Source of the DNA: Squalus acanthias
Taxonomy: Eukaryota
Direction of reading: 5' to 3'
DNA length: 64,000 nucleotides
Assembly: GCA_030390025.1 (NCBI GenBank)
Contig: CM059438.1
Location: 79,918,001-79,982,000 of the forward strand
Below, piece by piece: positions 6,662-60,357 of this stretch. Within the stretch, counting starts at the first letter, position 1, and every line of letters starts with the position of its first letter. A program made the position numbers and the translations under genes. Under the pieces are notes generated by a model that did not search any database, was not told where the DNA came from, and was given only the letters and a program-made list of their open reading frames with translations.

Positions 6662-8785
6662 ATAAGAACATAAGAAATAGGAGCAGGAGTAGGCCAATCG
6701 GCCCCTCGAGCCTGCTCCGCCATTCAATAAGATCATGGCTGATCTGATCCTAACCGCCAATCTACTATCTACTATCACAGAACTATCTCCTGCATCTAAC
6801 AGAATTGCACACACGAAATAGGAGCAGAATCAGGCTACACGGTCCCTGGGCCCGCTCCACTACCCACAGGGCCATGACCGATCCGAACCTAGACTCATGT
6901 CCAAATTCCTGCCCGCTCCCCGTAACCCTTAATGCCCTTTACTTCTAGGAAACGGTCTATTTCTGTTTTAAATTTATTTAATGATGTAGCTTCTACAGCT
7001 TTTTGTGGCAGCATATTCCATGGACCTACCACCCTCTGAGTGAAGTAGTTCCTCCTCATCTCAGTTTTGAAAGAGCAACCCCTTATTCTAAGACTATGTC
7101 CCCTAGTTCTAGTCTCACCCGTCATCGGGAACATCCTCCCCGCATCCACCCGATCCAACCCCTTCACAATCTTATATGTTTCAATAAGATCGCCTCTCAT
7201 TCTTTTGAACTCCAATGAGTAGAGTCCCAATCTACCCAACCTCTCCTCATATGACCACCCCCTCATCCCCGGGATTAACCGAGTGAACCTTTTTTGCACT
7301 GCCTCGAGAGCAAGGATGTCTTTCCTTAAGTAAGGACACCAAAACTGTATGCAGTATTCCAGGTGCGGTCTCACCAATACCTTGTACAACTGAAGCAATA
7401 CCTCCCTATTTTTATATTCTATCCCCCTAGCAATGAAAGCCAACATTCCATTTGCCTTCTTAATCACTTGCTGCAACTGCATACTAACCTTTTGAGTTTC
7501 GTGCACCAGGACCCCCAGATCCCTTTGCACGTCAGTACTCTCCAGTTTCTTGCCATTAAGATAATAAATTGCTCTAGGATTTTTCCTGCCAAAGTGCATC
7601 ACCTCACACTTTCCAGTGTTGTATTCCATCTGCCAAATCTCTGCCCACTTACTTAGCCTGTCTATGTCCCCTTGCAGGTTTTTTATGTCCTCCTCACTCA
7701 CTACTTTCCCTCCCATCTTTGTATCATCTGCAAATTTTGATATGTTACACTTGGTCCCTTCCTCCAAATCGTTAATATAGATTGTAAAGAGTTGGGGACC
7801 CAGCACTGACCCCTGTGGAACACCACTAGTTACTGATTGCCAGTCTGAGAATGAACCATTTATCCCAACTCTTTGCTTTCTGTTAGATAGCCAATCCTCT
7901 ATCCATGCCAGAATATTACCCCCAATCCCGTGATTTTTTACCTTAAGCAATAATCTTTTGTGTGGCACGTTGTCAAATGCCTTTTGGAAGTCTAAATACA
8001 CTACGTCCACTGGTTCCCCTTTATCCACTCTATATGTTACTTCCTCAAAGAACTCCAGCAAATTTGTCAAACATGACTTCCCCTTCGTAAAACCATGCTG
8101 ACTTTGTCCTATTAAATTATGATTATCCAAATGTCCTGTTACTGTTTCCTTAATAATGGACTCCAAAATTTTACCTACCACAGATGTTAGGCTAACCGGT
8201 CTATAGTTACCAGCCTTCTGTCTACTGCCCTTTTTAAATAAGGGTGTTACATTAGCAGTTTTCCAGTCTGCCGGGACCTTAGCGGAATCCAGGGAGTTTT
8301 GAAAAATTACCAATGCATCTACAATCCCTACCGCCACTTCCTTCAAGACTCTAGGATGTAAGCCATCAGGTCCAGGTGATTTATCCGCCTTGAGTCCCAT
8401 TATTTTACCGAGTACCACTTCCTTAGTGATTTTGATCGTGTTTAGCTCCTCTCCCCCTATAGCCCCCTGTTTGTCCAGTGTTGGGATATTCTTAGTGTCC
8501 TCTACTGTAAAGACTGATACAAAATATTCATTCAGTGTTTTTGCCATCTCCATATTTCCCACCATTAATTTCCCGGTCTCATCCTCTAAGGGACCAACAT
8601 TTACTTTAGCCACCCTTTTTCTTTTTATATAACTATAAAAACTCTTACTATCTGTTTTTATATTTTTTGCTAATTTACTTTCATAATCTATCTTCCCTTT
8701 CTTAAATCAATCTTTTTGTTATTTTTTGCTGCCTTTTAAAGTTTTCCCAATCCTCTGTCCTCCCACTAGATTTCGCTACCTTATA
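6662..8785 (-). mobile_element. 5'-truncated young CR1 (L3) LINE
   Basis: Contains the ORF2 RT region and a 3' UTR ending ...ctcctgctcctatttcttatgttcttat on the minus strand. Homology stops near 8785. Confidence 0.93.
6895..8613 (-). CDS. CR1 ORF2 reverse transcriptase plus C-terminal domain (572 aa open; endonuclease lost by truncation)
   Basis: Motifs KSPGPDGLHPRVLKE, NYRPVSLTSVVGK, YLDFQKAFD, GVPQGSVLGP, KFADDTK, LVRPHLEY and RGDLIETYK. Confidence 0.92.
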   Translation of the reverse strand: MAKVNVGPLEDETGKLMVGNMEMAKTLNEYFVSVFTVEDTKNIPTLDKQGAIGGEELNTIKITKEVVLGKIMGLKADKSPGPDGLHPRVLKEVAVGIVDALVIFQNSLDSAKVPADWKTANVTPLFKKGSRQKAGNYRPVSLTSVVGKILESIIKETVTGHLDNHNLIGQSQHGFTKGKSCLTNLLEFFEEVTYRVDKGEPVDVVYLDFQKAFDNVPHKRLLLKVKNHGIGGNILAWIEDWLSNRKQRVGINGSFSDWQSVTSGVPQGSVLGPQLFTIYINDLEEGTKCNISKFADDTKMGGKVVSEEDIKNLQGDIDRLSKWAEIWQMEYNTGKCEVMHFGRKNPRAIYYLNGKKLESTDVQRDLGVLVHETQKVSMQLQQVIKKANGMLAFIARGIEYKNREVLLQLYKVLVRPHLEYCIQFWCPYLRKDILALEAVQKRFTRLIPGMRGWSYEERLGRLGLYSLEFKRMRGDLIETYKIVKGLDRVDAGRMFPMTGETRTRGHSLRIRGCSFKTEMRRNYFTQRVVGPWNMLPQKAVEATSLNKFKTEIDRFLEVKGIKGYGERAGIWT

Positions 8786-11170: not shown

Positions 11171-11642
11171 TAGGAGTGGATTCCTAATAAAAGGATTCTG
11201 GAAGGTACCAACTCAGATCCACCAAGGGGCTGAGGTAAGTAAATAGCTCTATTGCCAGGAGTACTTTGTTGCTTTCTTTACAAGTGTTTCCATATGTGTC
11301 AGTCACCTCGGTAGGAGCAAACACTGAGATAACCATCAGCAGTTATCACAGACATACACTTAAAGAGCTTGTGTACTGCGACTAGATCGAAGAACAACAC
11401 CTTGCAGTAGTGCTCGCCCATCACCTTGAAAGACAGAAATTTTGCGTGGTACTCCCTGGTGGTTAAAACGAGAGGCGCATTGTTTAAATCTTTGGCAGTC
11501 ATCAAGTCCCCTGGGATATTACCTGACTGATTACAGCAGCCTGTTTTTAGCTGCTCATTTCTGAGGCACTTGTTCAGTTTTCTCTGATCCAGGGTGGGTA
11601 TGAATAACCTTTTTTGGGGAGAACAAAGTAGCAAGAGTTAAA

Positions 11643-11877
11643 TAAAAACAGAAAATGCTGGAAATACTCAGCAGGTCAGGCAGCATCTGTGGAGAGAGAA
11701 AGAGAGTTAACGTTTCAGGTCGATGACCTTTCGTCAGGGTTCTGATGAAAGGTCATCGAACTGAAACATTAACTGTTTTTCTCCCTCCACTGATGCTGCC
11801 TGACCTGCTGAGTATTTCCAGCATTTTCTGTTTTTATTTCAGATTTCCAACATCCGCAGTATTTTGCTTTTGTATTC
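11643..11877 (+). mobile_element. Non-autonomous Penelope-like element (inverted pseudo-LTR hairpin)
   Basis: ~95-bp inverted arms centred near 11739, a unique ~40-bp tail, and a 12-bp TSD GCAAGAGTTAAA (11631-11642, 11878-11889). Both arms contain a hammerhead core. Confidence 0.8.
11737..11775 (+). ncRNA. Minimal type I hammerhead ribozyme motif, slightly decayed
   Basis: GGGUU CUGAUGA A AGGUC AUC GAACU GAA ACAU U AACUG. The core is intact, stem II has one mismatch, and the palindrome ACGU has changed to ACAU. Confidence 0.6.
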
Positions 11878-23371: not shown

Positions 23372-24447
23372 ATGGGGGCTGTGCTGGCACTCCACCTTGC
23401 CCTCCGGCAACTACGTCGGAGGCAGCGGACGCAGAGATAGAGATTGCCAAATGTGGCCAGAGGGAGGAGGAGGGCCGACAGACCTCACAACAGGAGGCCT
23501 TACCCTCTCAGGGTATTCCGGGAGCACTTCTCCTACATTCATCTCTCAGAGGAGCAGTGCCTTAGAAGGCTCTGCTTCAGCAAGGAGGTGGTCACAGGGC
23601 TCTGCCACCTCCTGCAGCCAAGCCTCAGCTCAGGATCAGGATGTCTCTCTCAGTGGCAGTTAAGGTCACAGTTGCTCTCAATTTCTACGCCAGCGGCTCC
23701 TTCCAGGCTTCAACAGGGGATATTGCAAAGGTTTCGCAGTTCGCCGTCCATTGCTGCAACCGGGAGGTAACAGACGCTCTCTACAAAAGGAGAAGGGAGT
23801 ACATCTCATTCCCCATCACCAGAAAGAAGCAGGACAAACGCTCATGTGGCTTTGCAAGGATAGTGGGATTCCCCATGGTTCAGGGCGCCACTGACTGCAT
23901 CCACGTGGCATTGTGGGCACCTCATCACAATGTAGAGGTATTCCGTAACCGCAAAAGCTACCACTCTCTGAACATTCAGTTGGTGTGCGACCACAGACAG
24001 TTCATCCTGCCAAGATACAGTCATCCTGCGACAGACTGGTGTCCCAGCACTGTTCCACCCACCACATGAAGGTCGCGGCTGGCTGCTCGGAGACAAGGGT
24101 TATCCCCTCCGCAACCCCAACACTCCTGCTCAGCACACATACAATGACAGCCATACCGCCACCAGGAACCTAATCGAACACACTATCGGGGTGCTAAAGC
24201 AACGGTTCCGCTGCCATGACCGCTCTGGAGGAGCCCTGCAGTACTCCCCTGATCGAGTCTCCCTTTTCATTGTTGTTTGCTGCATGCTGCACAACCTGAG
24301 CCCAGCCATTGCCACCAGGGATTGGAGGTCCACCTCAGGAGGAGGAAGAGGAGGAGGAGCAACAGCAACGGAGGAGGGAGCCACTCAATCTTGCTTCTGC
24401 AAGGGCCGATCGTGAGCGCCACATTAGACACCGCTTCCAATCAATGA
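23372..24447 (+). pseudogene. Harbinger (HARBI1-like, DDE_Tnp_4) transposase, frameshifted
   Basis: Fragments [89 protein letters not shown] and [14 protein letters not shown]...GGALQYSP...IVVCCMLHN, spread over different frames. The PGSxHD segment is deleted. Confidence 0.92.
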
Positions 24448-29381: not shown

Positions 29382-29900
29382 GTGTCAGTTTGGCTCAGTG
29401 GCAGCACTCTGGTCTCCGACTCAAAAAGTTCTTTGTTCAAGTCTTCCTCCAGGATTTGAGCACATAATCTGGTGCAGCACTGAGGGAAGTTGCTGCATTG
29501 TCAGAGGTGCCATCTTTCGGATGAGACATTAACCCTGAGGTTCCATCTGGCTGTTCAGGTGGTTATAAAGGATCACATGACACTTTTTCAAAAGCCCATC
29601 AGCATCTGTGAAGAAACAGACAAGCTGGCCTTTCAGGTGTTAACTTGCCTGTTTGCTCCACAGATGCTGAAGGATCACCTGAGCATTTCAGCATTTTCTA
29701 TTTTTGATTCAGATTTCCAGAATTAGCAGTTCTTTTGCATTTTATTCACACTTTTTCCAAAGACCTGTCTGTATGCATATTGGCTGCCACATTTGCCGAC
29801 ACAATAGTGACTACACTTCAAAAGTAATTCACTGGTTGTGAAGCACTTGGGGATATCCGGGGCATGTGAAAGACACTATAAATGGAAGTCCTTCCTCTTT
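29382..29900 (+). mobile_element. tRNA-derived Deu-type SINE interrupted by a Penelope-like element
   Basis: Head tggctcagtggcagcactct...gttcaagtc, Deu-like core ctgagggaag..gctgcattgtcagaggtgccatctttcggatgagacattaa, and tail gtgaaagacactataaatggaagtc. Confidence 0.8.
29595..29747 (+). mobile_element. Older Penelope-like hairpin element with the ribozyme core deleted
   Basis: Arms cagcatctgtg...cacagatgctg, the shared tail ttcagatttccag...ttttgc, and a 15-bp TSD ACACTTTTTC(A/C)AAAG (29580-29594, 29748-29762). Confidence 0.75.
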
Positions 29901-34200: not shown

Positions 34201-34748
34201 CATTCTGTAAGAAACAGAAGCACCTGTTACTAAAACTATTCTAAAACTCTCTGAACAGATCTGCAGAAATTTGAAAAGTACTCACTCACGTAACAACACA
34301 GTCCTGTTTTTGCTGTTGAAGTGGAGATAAGCACGCCGCCTCAGTTTCCTTTGATTTCTCTTTACCATCAATAATTTATACTTGGAAATTAATGAGAGGA
34401 AAGGGCTAGGAGAATGTCAAGATAAAAATAGTACTGGAATAGGAAGGTAGGTTTACAAAAGAAAAGGTGACTGAAAATGCTCCCGTATTATTGTGTCGAG
34501 TTTACTCATCTAGGCTCTGTCATGTTGGGGCCGATGAAGAAGGAAAAAGGTATTTGAAACTTCAAATAATAAAAAAGTTAGGATAGGAGAGTGTCAAATA
34601 AAAAAATGGGGAAAGAAAGAAAATGAAAAGGGCATTACAAAATGAACACTGCCAAGATGTTTCTTTATGTAAATGGCGTTTTAGATATTTAATTTGTAGT
34701 TTATAGGTAAAACTACAAAAGCAAAACTATTACAAAAGCAAAACTATT

Positions 34749-34973
34749 ACAAAAGCAAAATATTGCGGATGCTGGAAATCTGAAATAAAAACAGAAAATG
34801 CTGGAAATACTCAGCAGGTCAGGCAGCATCTGTGGAGAGAGAAACAGAGTCAACGTTTCAGGTTGATGACCCTTTGTCAGACGAAAGGTCATCGACCTGA
34901 AACGTTAGCTCTGTTTCTCTCTCCACAGATGCTGCCAGACCTGCTGAGTATTTCCAGCATTTTCTGTTTTTAT
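34749..34973 (-). mobile_element. Non-autonomous Penelope-like hairpin element, same family as 11643-11877 but in the opposite orientation
   Basis: ~95-bp inverted arms centred near 34880 and a 12-bp TSD AGCAAAACTATT (34737-34748, 34974-34985). Confidence 0.8.
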
Positions 34974-41274: not shown

Positions 41275-41318
41275 CTGGTCGCTGTAGTCCTCAGGGAATT
41301 GCCTCCGCACCTCAGGAT
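41275..41318 (-). CDS. dennd1a: DENND1A 44-bp coding exon, probably exon 3
   Basis: Minus strand reads ttatttacAG|ATCCTGAGGTGCGGAGGCAATTCCCTGAGGACTACAGCGACCAG|GTttgg = (D)PEVRRQFPEDYSDQ. It ends in phase 0 and joins in frame to the 38-87 exon. Confidence 0.95.
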
Positions 41319-51070: not shown

Positions 51071-51170
51071 CCGTTCTGATGAAAGGTCACTGGCCTGAAA
51101 CGTTAACTCGGTTTCTCTCTCCACAATGCTGCCTGACCTGCTGAGTATTTCCAGCATTTTTTGTTTTTAA
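51071..51170 (+). mobile_element. Single-arm Penelope-like element beginning at the hammerhead motif
   Basis: GUU CUGAUGA A AGGUC ACU GGCCU GAA ACGU U AAC (51073-51107) followed by the family arm. TSD TTCAA(C/A)ATGAAT at 51059-51070 and 51171-51182. Confidence 0.8.
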
Positions 51171-51980
51171 TTCAAAATGAATACTTCTGCTGGTAATTAT
51201 AGCTCAAGAGCTACGAGCGATTCCACAGCAATCTGAGCAAGAAAATAGTGGTCGCAAAGTATTAAACCTGGCTGGGTTTGTAAGTTTGATAACAGTCGCT
51301 AGTTAATCTTCAAGCAGCCAATGCCACGTGTAGTCGTCAGGTTAAGTGGGATTAGCGACCGAAATTCTCTGCAGTACATGCCGAGGAGTTGGGAGATGCA
51401 AATTCAAGGTGTGACGACACAAACAATGGTGAGAGGGTGTCATTACAGCAGGACAAGTTTACATAGGCAGTGTCCATTATCGATGCAGACATAGGAATTT
51501 ATAATGGAAAATGCTGCATGCACAGATCAAGATTTATTTATATAAATAATAATGTGGCATATATGTGTGAGGATGTCGGATAAGGGCAGGTTGAAGTTGC
51601 TCTTTGATGCTGCTGATTCCTCTCTCTCCCGCTTTATAACCTTCCAACATTCAAACTCAAAGAATGGCCATTTAGGTAGCATACCAGAGGACTGTCTATG
51701 TAACTGGACCACAGTTGGGAGTTATTTTAAAAACATCTCAGTAACGGCTATAGTTCCATCATCTAATGAACTGTACAACCATTAATCCTTAATCTGTTTC
51801 TCAAAGTGTCATTAAGTAAAGCTCAATATTACATTGCGTTAAGTCGAGACTGATAGATATTAGAGAGCACTCTGTGGCCAAACTCTGACAGTCAGCTGTG
51901 TGCTTGCACGCCGCAAAATAGAACCCTGCTTCAAAATGAGATTCAAACTAAAACAGTTGAATGGCTGGGGTAAGTATGTA

Positions 51981-52399: not shown

Positions 52400-52531
52400 T
52401 ACATTCTTTCAGTCCCAAACTGACCACTGGGCCAGGGCCTCAAATTGAACTTGCAGAACTACTGGACCGCCTCTCAGTTCACACTGCAGTAAAAATTTAT
52501 TGGCTCAGCAACGTAATCAAACCTAAAGACT

Positions 52532-52670
52532 CGAGTTCGGGCGAAAGGTCATCGAACTGAAACGTTAGTCCTATGTCACTCTCACCACAGATGCTGCCTG
52601 GCCTGCTGAGTGTTCCCAGCATTTTCTGTTTTCATTTCAAATTTCCAGAATCTGCAGTCTTTTGCTTGTT
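52532..52670 (+). mobile_element. Decayed single-arm Penelope-like element
   Basis: gagttcgggcgaaaggtcatcgaactgaaacgttag...cacagatgctgcctggcctgctgag...; the core has mutated to CGGGCGA. Confidence 0.75.
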
Positions 52671-53606: not shown

Positions 53607-56344
53607 TACTTAAATCTATGATGCAAAGCAAAATTAAAGCTGCAGCCTGGAGAGGACAGATTTTGCTCTCTGTTAGAGTTTGAATCAGCCCACTTCATAC
53701 TGTTCACATGGTTCCAACTAATGCAGAACAAGTGCTAATGTTATAAAAATCAAAATATCAACTCCACAACATCAATGAGGTAAATGACAGAGCATTAACA
53801 CATCAATGAAGTAGTAACACACACCTTATCATTAGTACAGTCATTCTCATTCTTTTTTTATATTTCACATGCCAATCACAACTCAGCAGCAGGATCTTTA
53901 CTTCATCCCAGGTTTGAAAAAAGATAGCAAAAGTTTGCATGGAATCGAGATTTAGAGTCTGAAACAATGTCCTTAAATATGCTGAATAGAAAAAATATTT
54001 ATTGCTGGTAGTGTAATTATAGGATTATTCAGTGAAACAGGGACAACATTTTTTTTCCCCAGCCCTGTTACTTCATCATTCCGATGTCCCAATATCAACA
54101 AGGAGCCTATATTGATTGCATTAGAGTAATCAGAAAAATAACTACAAATTGCCTATATGTGACAATGTTATGAATTTCAAAAAATACTTAAAATAAGACT
54201 ACTGTAAATTCTATTTGAAAGAATTGCGTCTCAGTTCACAATCACACAGAACAGGGAGATACTGTATAGGATGAGCATGAGAAATACTGCTCAACACATT
54301 GCAGATTTTGTATTCAAGATATCAAAAGCACAGTTTTACCTTTATCTCACTTATAGCTTGGAATTATTTTTTTTACCAATGGGTATCTAGATTAAACATA
54401 ATTTGGACCTTTTGCAATTATCTGCTTTTAATTAGGAACATTTCAGAGTCTTTGATGGTTTTGCATTTGAATCAAATCAATCTGTATTAACTACTTATCT
54501 CAGATTTTACTATAACTGCAGTACCTCTCCTCTCAATTATTTTCTTCCATTTTTACAGCTGAAACCTTTCTATTCCCCCCATTTCTTTGAGCGGTGAAAA
54601 GTTACAGCTCCAATTTTTGTGCAAACAATAAATGTTAATAAGGGCATGGATAATAATGTAGATTCGCTCGTGTACAGCGTGCTAGGTAAACATTTAACTC
54701 CAACAATGAAGAGACTTGCTGGCCACCATCAGAAAACCAGCATACACAGCTTTGATATTGGTAAACCACATAATCTCATTGCTCAATTTCATGGAGTTTT
54801 AGCCAAACAAGTGCTTCTAAAGGACTGCACTGCAGGCTTGGCTAGATTCGAATCTGAGTCGCAACCTGACGCGATTTTCCAGCTGACAGGATGGGAATAC
54901 GCCACAAAACAGCGCATCAGCAAGGTACTTAAGCATTGCTCTTTTACATGTTCTGGAGCCGCATTCCGCTGCATGAACACTGTTCCTTATTAGACCTCTT
55001 CAGATTGAAGGTATCTGAATTAACTTTCCATTTTAGCAGCTGTCATTTCTGCAGAACCGCCTAACAGTGCATGTAGTGCCTTTTTAAAAAATATTTTAAC
55101 TTTACCTGTGTTACTCTACTTCAAAACTAAGGGTAAAATGGGCTTATGCTTCTGAGCCAAACAACATAAATTGCAGAAGCTGTATAACCTTGATTAAAAA
55201 CGGAAAGCAATCCAATATAAAAGTATTCGATTTAAGATCAGACATTTAAATTGGACTATCACTCTTCCATAAACTGATCTCCTGAAGGCAGTACATAAAA
55301 CCTACAAAATCAATTAACAGCGTTACACAAAGTTTCTTTTGTCCGTTTTGAAAAATCTAGTTTTATGAGGGCCGGCAAATTTGGAAAGTTTCCAAACAAG
55401 GGTGGAAAATTTTATGGACTTAAAAAAAAAAAATCTCAAAACAGTAAAGACTGAATTCAATTTCTCTACCAACTTAACCAAATTGCTTTCTCATCATCAT
55501 CCTCTGACAATTTTTAACATCTTAAGTGAATTGAAATACACTCCACCCTCATTATAAAACCAGGCCCTGGGAGACATTCTACGTGTTATAATAAGATGCA
55601 TGTTACAATGAATGCTATATAATGCAGCCCACAGTGTATCATAAAATTAATCAGGATCCAAGGTCCAGCAGCCTCATAACAGAGTCCTCTGAGGGTAGAT
55701 TCATTGCATGATATTGTAAAACTGTTTATGCTTGTGAGAACAATATTTTCGTGCTTTTCACGGTGTGACCCAACCAACAAAAATACGATCACATATACTG
55801 TATACGTAGCTTGTAGGTGGCAGAATGTATGAAGCCATTTTAAATATTCCGATGCTTCCCATTCCAACTGAAATGTATTAGAACAGAAATGTTGTATTCC
55901 AATTAATAAACTGTGGGGAAGTACCTCATCTCCAACGTAGCATCTCCCACTGATGATCCAGCCAGACTGTAAATGATCAAGGTGAAGGGAGAAATCCTTT
56001 CTTACACACACACCTGCAGTTACTTCCACTATCTTTAAGGACAAAGATCAAATGCCAAGCGTTGACATTCTGAGATATGTCCTTCGGGTCCATGTACTAG
56101 ATATGCAGTGTGTTGCTCTGTAATAGTCCCATACACGTTATTTTACAAATCTAATGATGGAGAACAAGTTTTGCAAGCACTCCACAAACCCACTGTTTGT
56201 ACCTGGACAGACCTGGTACTGCCACACTTCAAACTCACCCGAATGAAATGAAGTTCACCAAACAGCATCCTTGGTCTGTCTCCTTTCCAAAGAAGTCAGA
56301 TATTCACTTGTTGGCAACACCCCAAAGACTATCAAATCACAAGA

Positions 56345-56920
56345 CAAGTACAGATAAGGAAGGCAATTTAGCCTATCCAATCTTTTCCATCAGGAAAACC
56401 TATAATCTCACATCCCTCAATTAAAACATCCAACTGACTCAATCAAAGGTTGTTGTCTCTACTAATTTACACTGAAGTTCATTCCATGTGTTGATCACAC
56501 CTGTACAAACAACTACCCAGAACAGTCCTAAATTTGTCTTTTACCATTTTGATCCTGTGCCTCCTTGTCCTACTGAGTTTCAAATTGAAGTCGTGTTCGG
56601 AATTTGTCTTTTCTACATCATTTACTATCTTGTAGACTTTGGTGAGGTCTCCTCTCAACTGCCTCCTTTCAAGGCTGAAAAGCCTACGTTTCTCAAGTCT
56701 TTCCTCATACCTTAATATCCTGGTGCTAGGGATTAGCTTGTGCCTCTTCTCTGCACTGCCCCAAGGCTTGAATGCATCTCAGTGGCAAAAACTGGACCCA
56801 GTACACAAGGCATGATCTGACCACACCACTGTTTAGTTTAGCATGTCCTCCAACTTACACTCTATTGATTTAACAATATAGTTTATAGTCTTCTATTTGC
56901 TTTGCTGATTGTTACTCCAC
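56345..56920 (-). mobile_element. Old CR1 LINE 3' fragment
   Basis: ttcaaggctgaaaagccta...tcaagtctttcctcata...ctcttctctgcactgcc...aactggacccagtac is the reverse complement of the QFW / AVQRR / YEERL..LGFSL region. Confidence 0.65.
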
Positions 56921-57452
56921 AGTGACTGAATCTAGCCCCGCCCCTCCCAAGGGCAGCGATGCTTACAGGGTACACAGCTCAGGAAATTTTAAGTATGCAG
57001 ACCATGATTTTCCATTCATTAATTTTAATGGACGGAAAATCATGGACTATGCGCCTGTGTTTTCACAAAATGGTATGCCTGAAGGTGCTGTTCTCCACAA
57101 GATTGCAAAATCACCCGTTAAATTCAGAGTCTACCAACACGACAAAGTCTCCCTCAACTTCACCCTTGGCTATTACAACAATATTCAGAGTATGTATGTT
57201 GTCAATTTTTTTTCCAATGTGCAAAATCTCTACATTAGTAAAAGCTAGAATAAGCACAATGATCTCAACAGGATATTCATTCTGAACTAGATCAAAACCT
57301 TTTAATCATGAAAAAGAGCAGAGGATGCCAACAACCTCAATCCTCATGCATAGTTTTTAGCTATTTCAGGTAACTTGCCTTGTATAGTTAACTGTAGTCG
57401 TCTGGTAGTATTCTCTGACTATATATGCTGTGCCCATATGTATTTCTTCACT

Positions 57453-57489
57453 TCACCTGACGAAGGAGCAGCGCTCCGAAAGCTTGTGA
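57453..57489 (+). ncRNA. Minimal type I hammerhead ribozyme motif with all core nucleotides intact
   Basis: UCAC CUGACGA A GGAGC AGC GCUCC GAA AGCU U GUGA: stem I UCAC/GUGA, perfect stem II GGAGC/GCUCC, and palindromic AGCU in place of stem III. Confidence 0.78.
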
Positions 57490-57545
57490 TTTCAAATAAA
57501 GCTGTTGGACTATAACCTGGTGTTGTGCAACTTCTCACTTTTGTA
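57453..57545 (+). mobile_element. Short pseudo-LTR of a second Penelope-like family
   Basis: Hammerhead motif followed by tttcaAATAAAgctgttggactataacctggtgttgtg...cactttgt; unrelated to the first family outside the ribozyme core. Confidence 0.7.
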
Positions 57546-60357
57546 TAGTGAGGGAAGAGTAGAAACAACATGAATGTCCAGGTTATCTGAAGCCAGCAGG
57601 GCTCCAGTGATAAGATTCTCTAATCCCTGATGTCATATTCCCTAGAGACAAAGAATCAGTCTTACTGTAATTTGGGTTGTAGCCCAAGACTTTACTATAA
57701 CATATTTGGAAGTGAAACATACAGTGCATTATCCACGTACTATCACCACACTGTTTCAAGTCTCTGCCCAACACTCGTTACAAAACAAAGGTGGAGAGGT
57801 GATGGGGGAACATCCCAGTGTTGTAGCTCTTGGAGAAAGAACAGGGGAATTCCCATCCCACAGATGCACATTCTAGTCTGTCGTTCATCAGAAAAGATTT
57901 TTGAACAATGTCTCCAAATTTGCCTTTTTTAGCACCTAGCAAGAACAGTGAGGCCACTTCACAAAAACTAAGATACTGCAGATCATATTAAGCAAGCCAT
58001 ATGCATAATCAATCTTCTACTTGTTCCTAAGAAAACTAGTTTGATCCCAGTGGATATTCGTGGCAACATCGATAAATTTGACTAACAAATTTAAAATTCT
58101 GTTTTTAGTAGAAAAACAAAACGATATGGAATGCAAATTAAGATCATTATTCTTTTCTTTAGAAGCACCGAAACTGACATTTTGCAGTGCTCCGGTTCAA
58201 AAGTGTGGCATATCACTAGTGAAAAGGGGATACCAGTTCAAGAAACTGGGTTTTTAAAATAATCTGATTAGGTAGTCATTATTCCACAGATTCTTCACAT
58301 AGCATCGACTTAACAACAACAGCAGCAGCAGCATGCATTTATATAGTACCTTTAATGTAGAAAACAGTGCTTTTCTCATTAGCTGCCTGGCCACTGTACT
58401 TGCATGACACTTCCGTTTTATCTAGAAGTATATTATCTCCAGAAGTTGCTTAGTGTCAGAAGAGCACAGCTTTTGGTCATATTCAAATAATCATAATTTA
58501 TCAAGGGTCTTTAGAGTTTCCTTCTAATTTAGCCATTTTACATTCATGATCTCATTGTGCCAGGAACGGTTTCCTTTTATTGGTCTCAAAAGCTAGTATT
58601 TTCATCCAAGGTCTTGTAATCTCAGTACGGTTACTCATAGAGGAGTGATGTTTGACATAATTTGCAAAATGTGGTGTAAGTTTGATTCCTAGCAGTTTTC
58701 TTTCTGGTATTCCCGGACTCCCAACCACCCACTCTAGTCCCTAACCCCAGCATGAAGCAGACCACCCCTTCCCCTTCTGCGACTCCCTCCCACACAGCAA
58801 CCCCAGAACCTAAGTTTACCCCCCTCATCCCCATCCCGAGCACAGAGTATCTCTCACCCACACAGGTGGCCCCACCCTGCCTTGGTACATCCTGCATTCC
58901 CTGGTCTTCAACAAAGGTAATATATAGATGATCAAAGGGGTGTGTGTGTGAAAGCCAGAGAGATGAGGTTGAGGTAAGAAAAAAAGTTATGAAAAAAGTG
59001 AAGAGTGCAAAAAACTATTGAAGACAGATAGAGATAACAATGAGAAAAGGGTTAGAGAACCACACAGATAAATACTATATAAAAGGAGAGAACAAAAGAA
59101 CGAACAAAAGAGACATGAAAAAATTAGAGAGTGGGAAAGAGGCAAAGAATATTCATTTTTCCCCATCAGTAAACACAAGGGGAGCTCAACAATTAATATC
59201 AGAATTTATATCAAGCAAACACCAAGGACTGTATAACTGTCTGAGATGTTTGATATTCTATCCAAAAAGGTAAGTATATACTGTAGTAACATTTCTTGAC
59301 AATGTGCTAAAAATGCAATGCTTATTTTTGCTGAGCAACTTGTTTTCAGCACTTTACAGATTTGTAAAATCAGAACTGAATCCCATTCATGTTCCAGAGC
59401 TACTGCAGTCCTGTGGCCCTTAGAATCAAAGTATTCAAGCTTTTAAAATAATTACATTGCTGTCAATTATCCACTAAGTATTTTGTGTATAGTTCAATAC
59501 TCTATTTCTGTTTTTCAATCCATAGATTTCCTCTTAAAACCATCTAATACTTTCTTTGCCATAAAACTTCCATATCAAAAAATAATTCCTCAAATAAACC
59601 TAGAGGAAAGCTCAATTAATATTTCTAAGGTTGGGTATGATCAGACTGCAAATTAAGCAGACAAAAACAAAGGAAAGTGATTTTTTTTTCCCCCAGAGGG
59701 AAATAGTGCTACCACAGAAGTGATTTACTTGCCAAAAAAGCTATTACCACTCAAACTCGCTTTTGCATTGATATGCCATTTCAAGGGCTACTGATTTAGT
59801 GACTGAATAAGTCAAATTCTATTTTTGTTACATGAGATTTCTGATTCTTTTTCTAAACCAGTCTTTCGGGATTGTATGCCACCACTCCATTTATGTTTCC
59901 ACAAAACACACACATCAGTGGCTTTGGACATGACCTTTGCTTGCACAGAGATTAATACTTTTAATAATTCTACTTGGAATCCAATTAGTATTTTATAGCA
60001 AATAGATAGCTGGTTTTGAAGTATGCACGGTCTTGTTTACAATAGCTTTTTGACAATGGCACTTTGCAAATTTGGTCATTAAAAATAAACAATGGTGGAA
60101 TCATTAACTCACTCAGAGGCTTCAGAATATGGTCTAACATTAACTTCTTTGTAACTGTGCAACGCGCCTGCAATTCTCCGATATGTGCTGGTTGCATGCA
60201 AGGCCTCAACATCCACATGGTGTCAAAATTTGCCCTATAGAAGTCACAACCTATGGTTTACACAAGGTAATGATATTATGTGAGGTTCATTTCGAAAGAC
60301 ATCATTCTGTTTTTCTACTCTCACAGTGCAAGTAGTGGCTATGAACACCTGTAGGGA

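Follow-up and report, generated by a model that had tools for sequence, protein, structure and literature searches.

A minimal hammerhead ribozyme motif within an intron of the dennd1a gene of the shark Squalus acanthias raises two questions: what kind of element carried it there, and whether it does anything at its present site. An earlier note, made from the sequence alone, had taken it to be the end of a non-coding, retrozyme-like family related to Penelope. The motif was followed up within the 64,000-nucleotide stretch of DNA that holds it (the window) and among related copies in the 3.7-Gb genome. At a probability of about 0.9, the stretch is a 156-bp 5′-truncated 3′ pseudo-LTR (pLTR) of a protein-coding Penelope-like element (PLE), inserted antisense in intron 2 of dennd1a, with a hammerhead that is likely inert and is intact because the copy is young.

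The Hammerhead Motif

The motif occupies 57453-57489 (+), an assignment based on sequence, descriptor, folding, and covariation. Both conserved boxes are present, as the earlier note had described, together with a 4-bp stem I (UCAC at 57453-57456 with GUGA at 57486-57489) and a 5-bp stem II with a 3-nt loop (57465-57469 with 57473-57477). The core CUGACGA lies at 57457-57463, with an extra A after it at 57464, and the GAA box lies at 57478-57480. The place of stem III is taken, again as described earlier, by the palindromic tetramer AGCU (57481-57484), which in a dimer would pair between the two molecules as stem III and is replaced through a compensatory swap in a second family of elements. 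Cleavage is predicted 3′ of U17 (57485), between 57485 and 57486, so that the cut proposed in the note agrees with hammerhead numbering. The AATAAA inside the pLTR (57495-57500, +, the strand opposite to dennd1a) begins 5 nt past stem I and not 6 nt as first reported, and is invariant in 37/37 aligned copies. The hallmarks of the minimal type I hammerheads of metazoan PLEs found here include both core boxes, a helix I of 4-5 bp, helix II, the extra base after A9, G10.1-C11.1, and a palindromic 15.1-16.1 segment replacing helix III.

A descriptor search, proposed earlier as a check, returned 57453-57489 (+) as the single match on both strands of the 64-kb window; 100 dinucleotide shuffles of the window gave 0.13 loose and 0 strict matches per window. 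Rfam returned no hammerhead match to the motif, either by E-value or by gathering score, a miss that is not counted against the hammerhead because minimal forms score below the Rfam models. Judged by its sequence, the motif is a genuine minimal type I hammerhead with predicted cleavage.

Folding predictions depend on context. Folded alone, stretches of 37-60 nt form both stems at probabilities of 0.65-1.0, and the probability of stem I is at most 0.08 once 100-350 nt of context is included. Folding of 57440-57560 gave a z-score of -1.76, with a top fold that differs from the hammerhead. The palindrome duplex is predicted at -2.5 kcal/mol, and in a two-copy fold a stem II swap (-30.5 kcal/mol) is preferred to stems II and III (-18.3 kcal/mol), in a notation in which stem I is not expressible. 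By analogy with published PLEs, a lone monomer would be expected to be weakly active, an expectation that the earlier note shared: in the available text of one study, minimal PLE hammerheads showed no cleavage as monomers and low cleavage as dimers (Cervera and De la Pena, 2014, PMC4209133).

Extent and Parentage of the Insertion

Similarity to other genomic copies covers 57388-57544. The insertion itself, delimited by these copies, by the related locus L122, by its target-site duplication (TSD), and by an empty site, spans 57389-57544 (+), and is thus 156 bp long where ~90 bp had been supposed. The two copies of the 9-bp TSD lie at 57380-57388 and 57541-57549 (+), as identified by flank comparison and the empty site, and the last 4 nt of the element are common to the element and the right TSD. 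For the empty site there is one contig, from a relative (organism C, run X9) and not from the same species; this contig skips exactly 161 nt, with 9 letters that fit either side, and has ~55 differences over ~1.2 kb of flank. Since the relative has the empty site, the insertion is lineage-specific. The window copy shows four differences from the copy majority, all outside the motif.

Parentage was traced through longer copies. A 101-bp query against the genome gave 863 first-look candidates, of which the 40 scored were 98-100% identical, and in several copies a GIY-YIG C-terminus lay upstream on the same strand. For the window's own subfamily, a query of 501 bp upstream of the ribozyme, which places no selection on the ribozyme, gave 1,448 candidates (40 scored, 39 fetched). 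All 39 copies picked in this way on the endonuclease end and 3′ UTR run into the window sequence, 37 of them across all of it at 93-98% identity. Because longer copies continue into an open reading frame (ORF) for reverse transcriptase (RT) and GIY-YIG endonuclease, the window copy is a 5′-truncated 3′ pLTR. At L122, 890 of the 892 residues of the ORF are present at 94% with one frameshift, and the 3′ end matches the window copy at 97.5% identity; among the loci examined, the window's own subfamily yielded no fully intact ORF.

Intact ORFs belong to sister subfamilies. A query with an RT fragment gave 18,486 candidates, of which 148 were scored and 16 loci were picked for long frames. Each of these 16 loci has a frame of at least 920 aa (892 aa from Met in most) and, 270-300 nt past the stop codon, a pLTR that is 83-89% identical to the window copy; 14/16 carry two same-strand hammerheads ~3.1 kb apart. 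The attribution to a Penelope pLTR, and the search for a parent with RT and GIY-YIG, were thus borne out, with linkage in 39/39 copies and intact frames at 16/16 sister loci. The same sequence stands ~300 nt behind the stop codon of a coding element, so the supposed non-coding family has to be given up. At L057, three same-strand hammerheads recur with a 3,115-bp period, as tandem full-length PLE units.

The 892-aa ORF matched RVT_1 in Pfam at 36 bits (cut-off 29.6), and fragments of the ORF gave only a weak RVT_1 match. Its motifs include YIDD, a CX4CXXC linker (residues 753-761 of the L053 ORF, present in L122 too), and GIY-YIG with CCHH, the GIY-YIG domain being assigned from motifs, with no score from Pfam. 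These motifs place the parent as an EN+ PLE, putatively of Neptune type, the CX2-5CXXC linker being common to Neptune and Nematis. As in the Neptune and Nematis EN+ PLEs described in the available text of Craig et al. (2021, PMC8557442), a single ORF encodes RT followed by a C-terminal GIY-YIG with CCHH and a CX2-5CXXC linker, and pLTRs, inverted 5′-truncated partners, and variable TSDs are shared as well; unlike those elements, the window copy lies outside a microsatellite. Direct-repeat pLTRs with a hammerhead, partial tandems, and inverted partners were all seen for the parent. Such architecture has been described in the fish elements Xena, Poseidon, and Neptune, along with thousands of single hammerhead copies per genome derived from truncated PLEs (Cervera and De la Pena, 2014, PMC4209133, available text). 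Helix II has 5 bp in the window motif vs. 7-8 bp in Schistosoma, and the same text names no cartilaginous fish (PMC4209133). No literature on shark PLE hammerheads or on this Squalus acanthias PLE family was found; supplements may list such families.

Copy Ends and the Origin of the Fragment

At their 3′ ends, the 39 copies fall into 17 short and 20 long ones (~33 nt further, to the ORF start codon), with 2 broken; L099 and L101, broken inside the element, were omitted from the end and decay counts. The window copy belongs to the short, tail-less class. The two 3′ end classes and the variable TSD match the published optional tail of PLEs.

To compare 5′ ends, copies were chosen solely by their match to the sequence that follows the predicted cut; of 439 candidates, 41 matched and 30 were used. 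In window-equivalent positions the 5′ ends spread from 55990 to 57481 among the 30 copies, of which 19 are ~95-140 bp long and start at 57440-57481, the 5′ edge of the motif; BLAST ends at fold-back junctions may be several bases off. None of the 30 starts at the predicted cut (57486), the nearest start being 57481, so the templates of reverse transcription were apparently mostly uncut. An inverted partner accompanies 21/30 copies. The cluster of 5′ ends at 57440-57481 may mark a transcript start, and the copies of ~95-140 bp arose from the autonomous element by truncation or fold-back. The window copy begins further upstream than this cluster, at 57389.

These ends bear directly on the alternative that the stretch is a monomer of a non-coding non-LTR retrozyme, derived from a tandem-array transcript that cleaves itself, circularizes, and is mobilized by a PLE. 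Non-LTR retrozymes are described as head-to-tail arrays of 150-450-bp units expressed as circles (PMC7229834; bioRxiv 10.64898/2026.07.22.740005; available text of both). The window copy resembles them in having a type I hammerhead related to PLE pLTRs and in being short and non-coding at its site, whereas their hammerheads are mostly canonical and that of the window is minimal (PMC7229834; bioRxiv 10.64898/2026.07.22.740005). Retrozymes derive from PLE pLTRs and have been reported in one chondrichthyan (bioRxiv 10.64898/2026.07.22.740005, available text), and the short copies starting at 57440-57481 would suit such an origin. However, the search for tandem copies found no short head-to-tail repeats with hammerheads: 220 hits in 152 loci (813 kb, a non-random sample) included 0 same-strand neighbors closer than 1.2 kb and 53 opposite-strand pairs closer than 1 kb. 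No tandem array was found at the insertion site either. The 5′ ends are scattered with none at the cut, an inverted partner is the usual form of PLE insertion, and all 39 copies of the unselected sample are tied to the coding element. With short head-to-tail repeats lacking in these loci, the stretch is not read as a retrozyme, an origin that is very improbable here.

For the preferred reading, a truncated pLTR of a coding PLE, a route can be proposed. The element's own endonuclease would have nicked an AT-rich site; RT would have initiated internally on the element RNA, using the upstream of two start points, and copied across the uncut hammerhead before dropping off after ~156 nt. By analogy with published PLEs, cleavage by the motif in full-length element RNA would require either a dimer joined through the palindromic tetramer or an element protein, and the lone antisense window copy is predicted to have neither dimer partner nor protein help.

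The Poseidon element PAc of Anolis carolinensis offers a parallel: its tail marks two internal RT start sites, its targets are AT-rich, cleavage by its ribozyme requires protein, and insertion in vitro does not depend on the ribozyme (Frangieh et al., 2024, PMC11167929). PAc and the window family have in common two 3′ end classes ~30-40 nt apart, an AT-rich target, a hammerhead near the ORF start, and no sign of ribozyme-cut templates (PMC11167929). PAc belongs to another clade, however, and its start codon lies at stem II, whereas that of the window family lies ~90 nt behind the cut, at the tail end (PMC11167929).

The Host Gene and Selection on the Motif

The placement in a dennd1a intron given by the earlier note was correct, the intron being intron 2, although the note was silent on the opposite strand of the host gene. 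Exons were located by protein motifs that we take to be those of dennd1a. Motif matches place exon 1 at G000:C14:80076823 (-) and exon 2 at G000:C14:~80067800 (-); exon 3 (41275-41318, -, 44 nt) and exon 4 (38-87, -, 50 nt) lie in the window with AG/GT ends. To the left of the window, the minus strand holds DENN and uDENN exons, and exons 1-5 are all minus; the top PDB match of exon 5 is DENND1A (6ekk, 54 bits vs. 40 bits for DENND1B). The element sits in the ~108-kb intron 2, upstream of exon 3 and antisense to dennd1a. As a result, the ribozyme and AATAAA are absent from the dennd1a pre-mRNA, and cleavage of the host pre-mRNA by the window copy is impossible.

Within 260 kb around dennd1a there are four descriptor matches, two per strand, all in intron 2. 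The two on the dennd1a sense strand, L067:7314 (-) and L069:9066 (-), are intact minimal hammerheads of different families, so sense-strand copies are tolerated in intron 2 too (n = 4 motifs, a small number). That the core, stems, and AATAAA are all intact, and lie within a conserved gene's long intron, might be taken to favor a role for the host, in which a ribozyme or poly(A) signal would trim the dennd1a pre-mRNA or an antisense RNA. This is the least probable of the explanations considered: the element is antisense to the gene, the insertion is missing in a related organism, intactness is expected from age and seen in 24/37 unselected copies too, and the sense-strand pair persists in the same intron without visible harm. 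No literature linking DENND1A to a hammerhead ribozyme was found.

Selection is visible among master elements. In 8 variants picked by hand from two families, the core varies only at U4 and N7, 9/11 stem pairs change on both sides (palindrome included), and 95.5% of cells are paired in the alignment vs. 22-42% when it is slid, most covarying changes stemming from one split between the two families. Because stems and palindrome covary across families, the fold is taken to be maintained in the master elements. Inserted copies, in turn, decay neutrally. They differ by 2% from the majority, 24 of the 37 unselected copies keep core and stems, and singleton changes at non-CpG sites are not rarer in core and stems (11/27) than elsewhere (27/112; p = 0.15). 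In a raw count the core seemed less often changed (2/333) than the flank (80/4070); this difference was rejected because inherited subfamily variants inflate the flank figure, and by alleles there is no difference. The intact motif of the window copy is what its young age would lead one to expect.

The intact-ORF loci (L048-L063) carry two kinds of variant: 11/16 hold U4C, in a lineage with a U-A closing pair, and 5/16 have U4 and an extended loop 2 containing a 6-nt palindrome of its own. By motif, U4C is present in 23/36 from these 16 loci vs. 1/52 from loci of the window's subfamily. U4C lowers hammerhead activity in vitro yet permits viroid infectivity (PMC3088659, available text).

A PLE lineage might keep the motif mainly for its fold, as a signal that binds protein, starts transcripts, or stops RT, and only secondarily for cleavage. 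The prevalence of the activity-lowering U4C among intact-ORF motifs is consistent with this, as are the clustering of copy 5′ ends at the motif's 5′ edge with none at the cut, and the finding that catalytic mutants left insertion of the anole element unaffected in vitro (PMC11167929). However, the remaining core positions are invariant in the 8 variants and the palindrome covaries, as would be expected under selection for a core that is active as a dimer; viroids with U4C remain infectious (PMC3088659, available text), and the change may be a single inherited event. A folded signal is unlikely, and it concerns the parent element, being compatible with an inert fragment in the window. A narrower and still more doubtful proposal is that the hammerhead serves in these PLEs as a family-specific RNA signal more than as a cutter: the AGCU and ACGU palindromes would limit dimers to self, the lineage richest in intact ORFs tolerates the weakened U4C core, and RT would stop at the motif's 5′ edge and not at the cut.

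The window copy matters little, being antisense and lineage-specific, and one among at least hundreds of nearly identical fragments in the genome. The family is of some value, since intact ORFs are numerous and the ribozyme varies naturally (U4 or C4, three loop-2 types, two palindromes), and it offers ready material for asking what the hammerhead does in the PLE cycle.

Seven pieces in the window represent the second pLTR family with a hammerhead (stem I AGUU/AACU, palindrome ACGU), at 11640-11874, 34745-34973, 51073-51173, 52531-52666, and 29639-29738; the first two of these stretches are fold-back pairs. None of its pieces in the window passes the hammerhead descriptor, and two intact copies lie in L069. 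Its parent is possibly a second, divergent PLE ORF (RT-like, weak RVT_1) at L022:1633-3101, directly behind a copy of the Neptune-type element. At L044, two segments of the parent 3′ UTR, one of 44 nt (82%) and one of 15 nt (exact), are matched in collinear order in the stretch behind the second family's hammerhead; within the parent they lie ~310-170 nt upstream of its own hammerhead. An old capture of one PLE's pLTR by another is a possible source of these shared pieces.

A 24-bp, 88% inverted repeat with a 2-nt loop lies at 56999-57048 and may belong to a small repeat family, to judge from its very high summed depth in contigs. No PDB match was found for a 119-aa open frame at 56889-57245. 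A 603-aa open frame at 6898-8706 (-) encodes a LINE reverse transcriptase, presumably of CR1/L2 type, and many further LINE fragments are found in the window. Broken transposase frames at 23441-24412 (+) are, from their motifs, presumably Harbinger-like.
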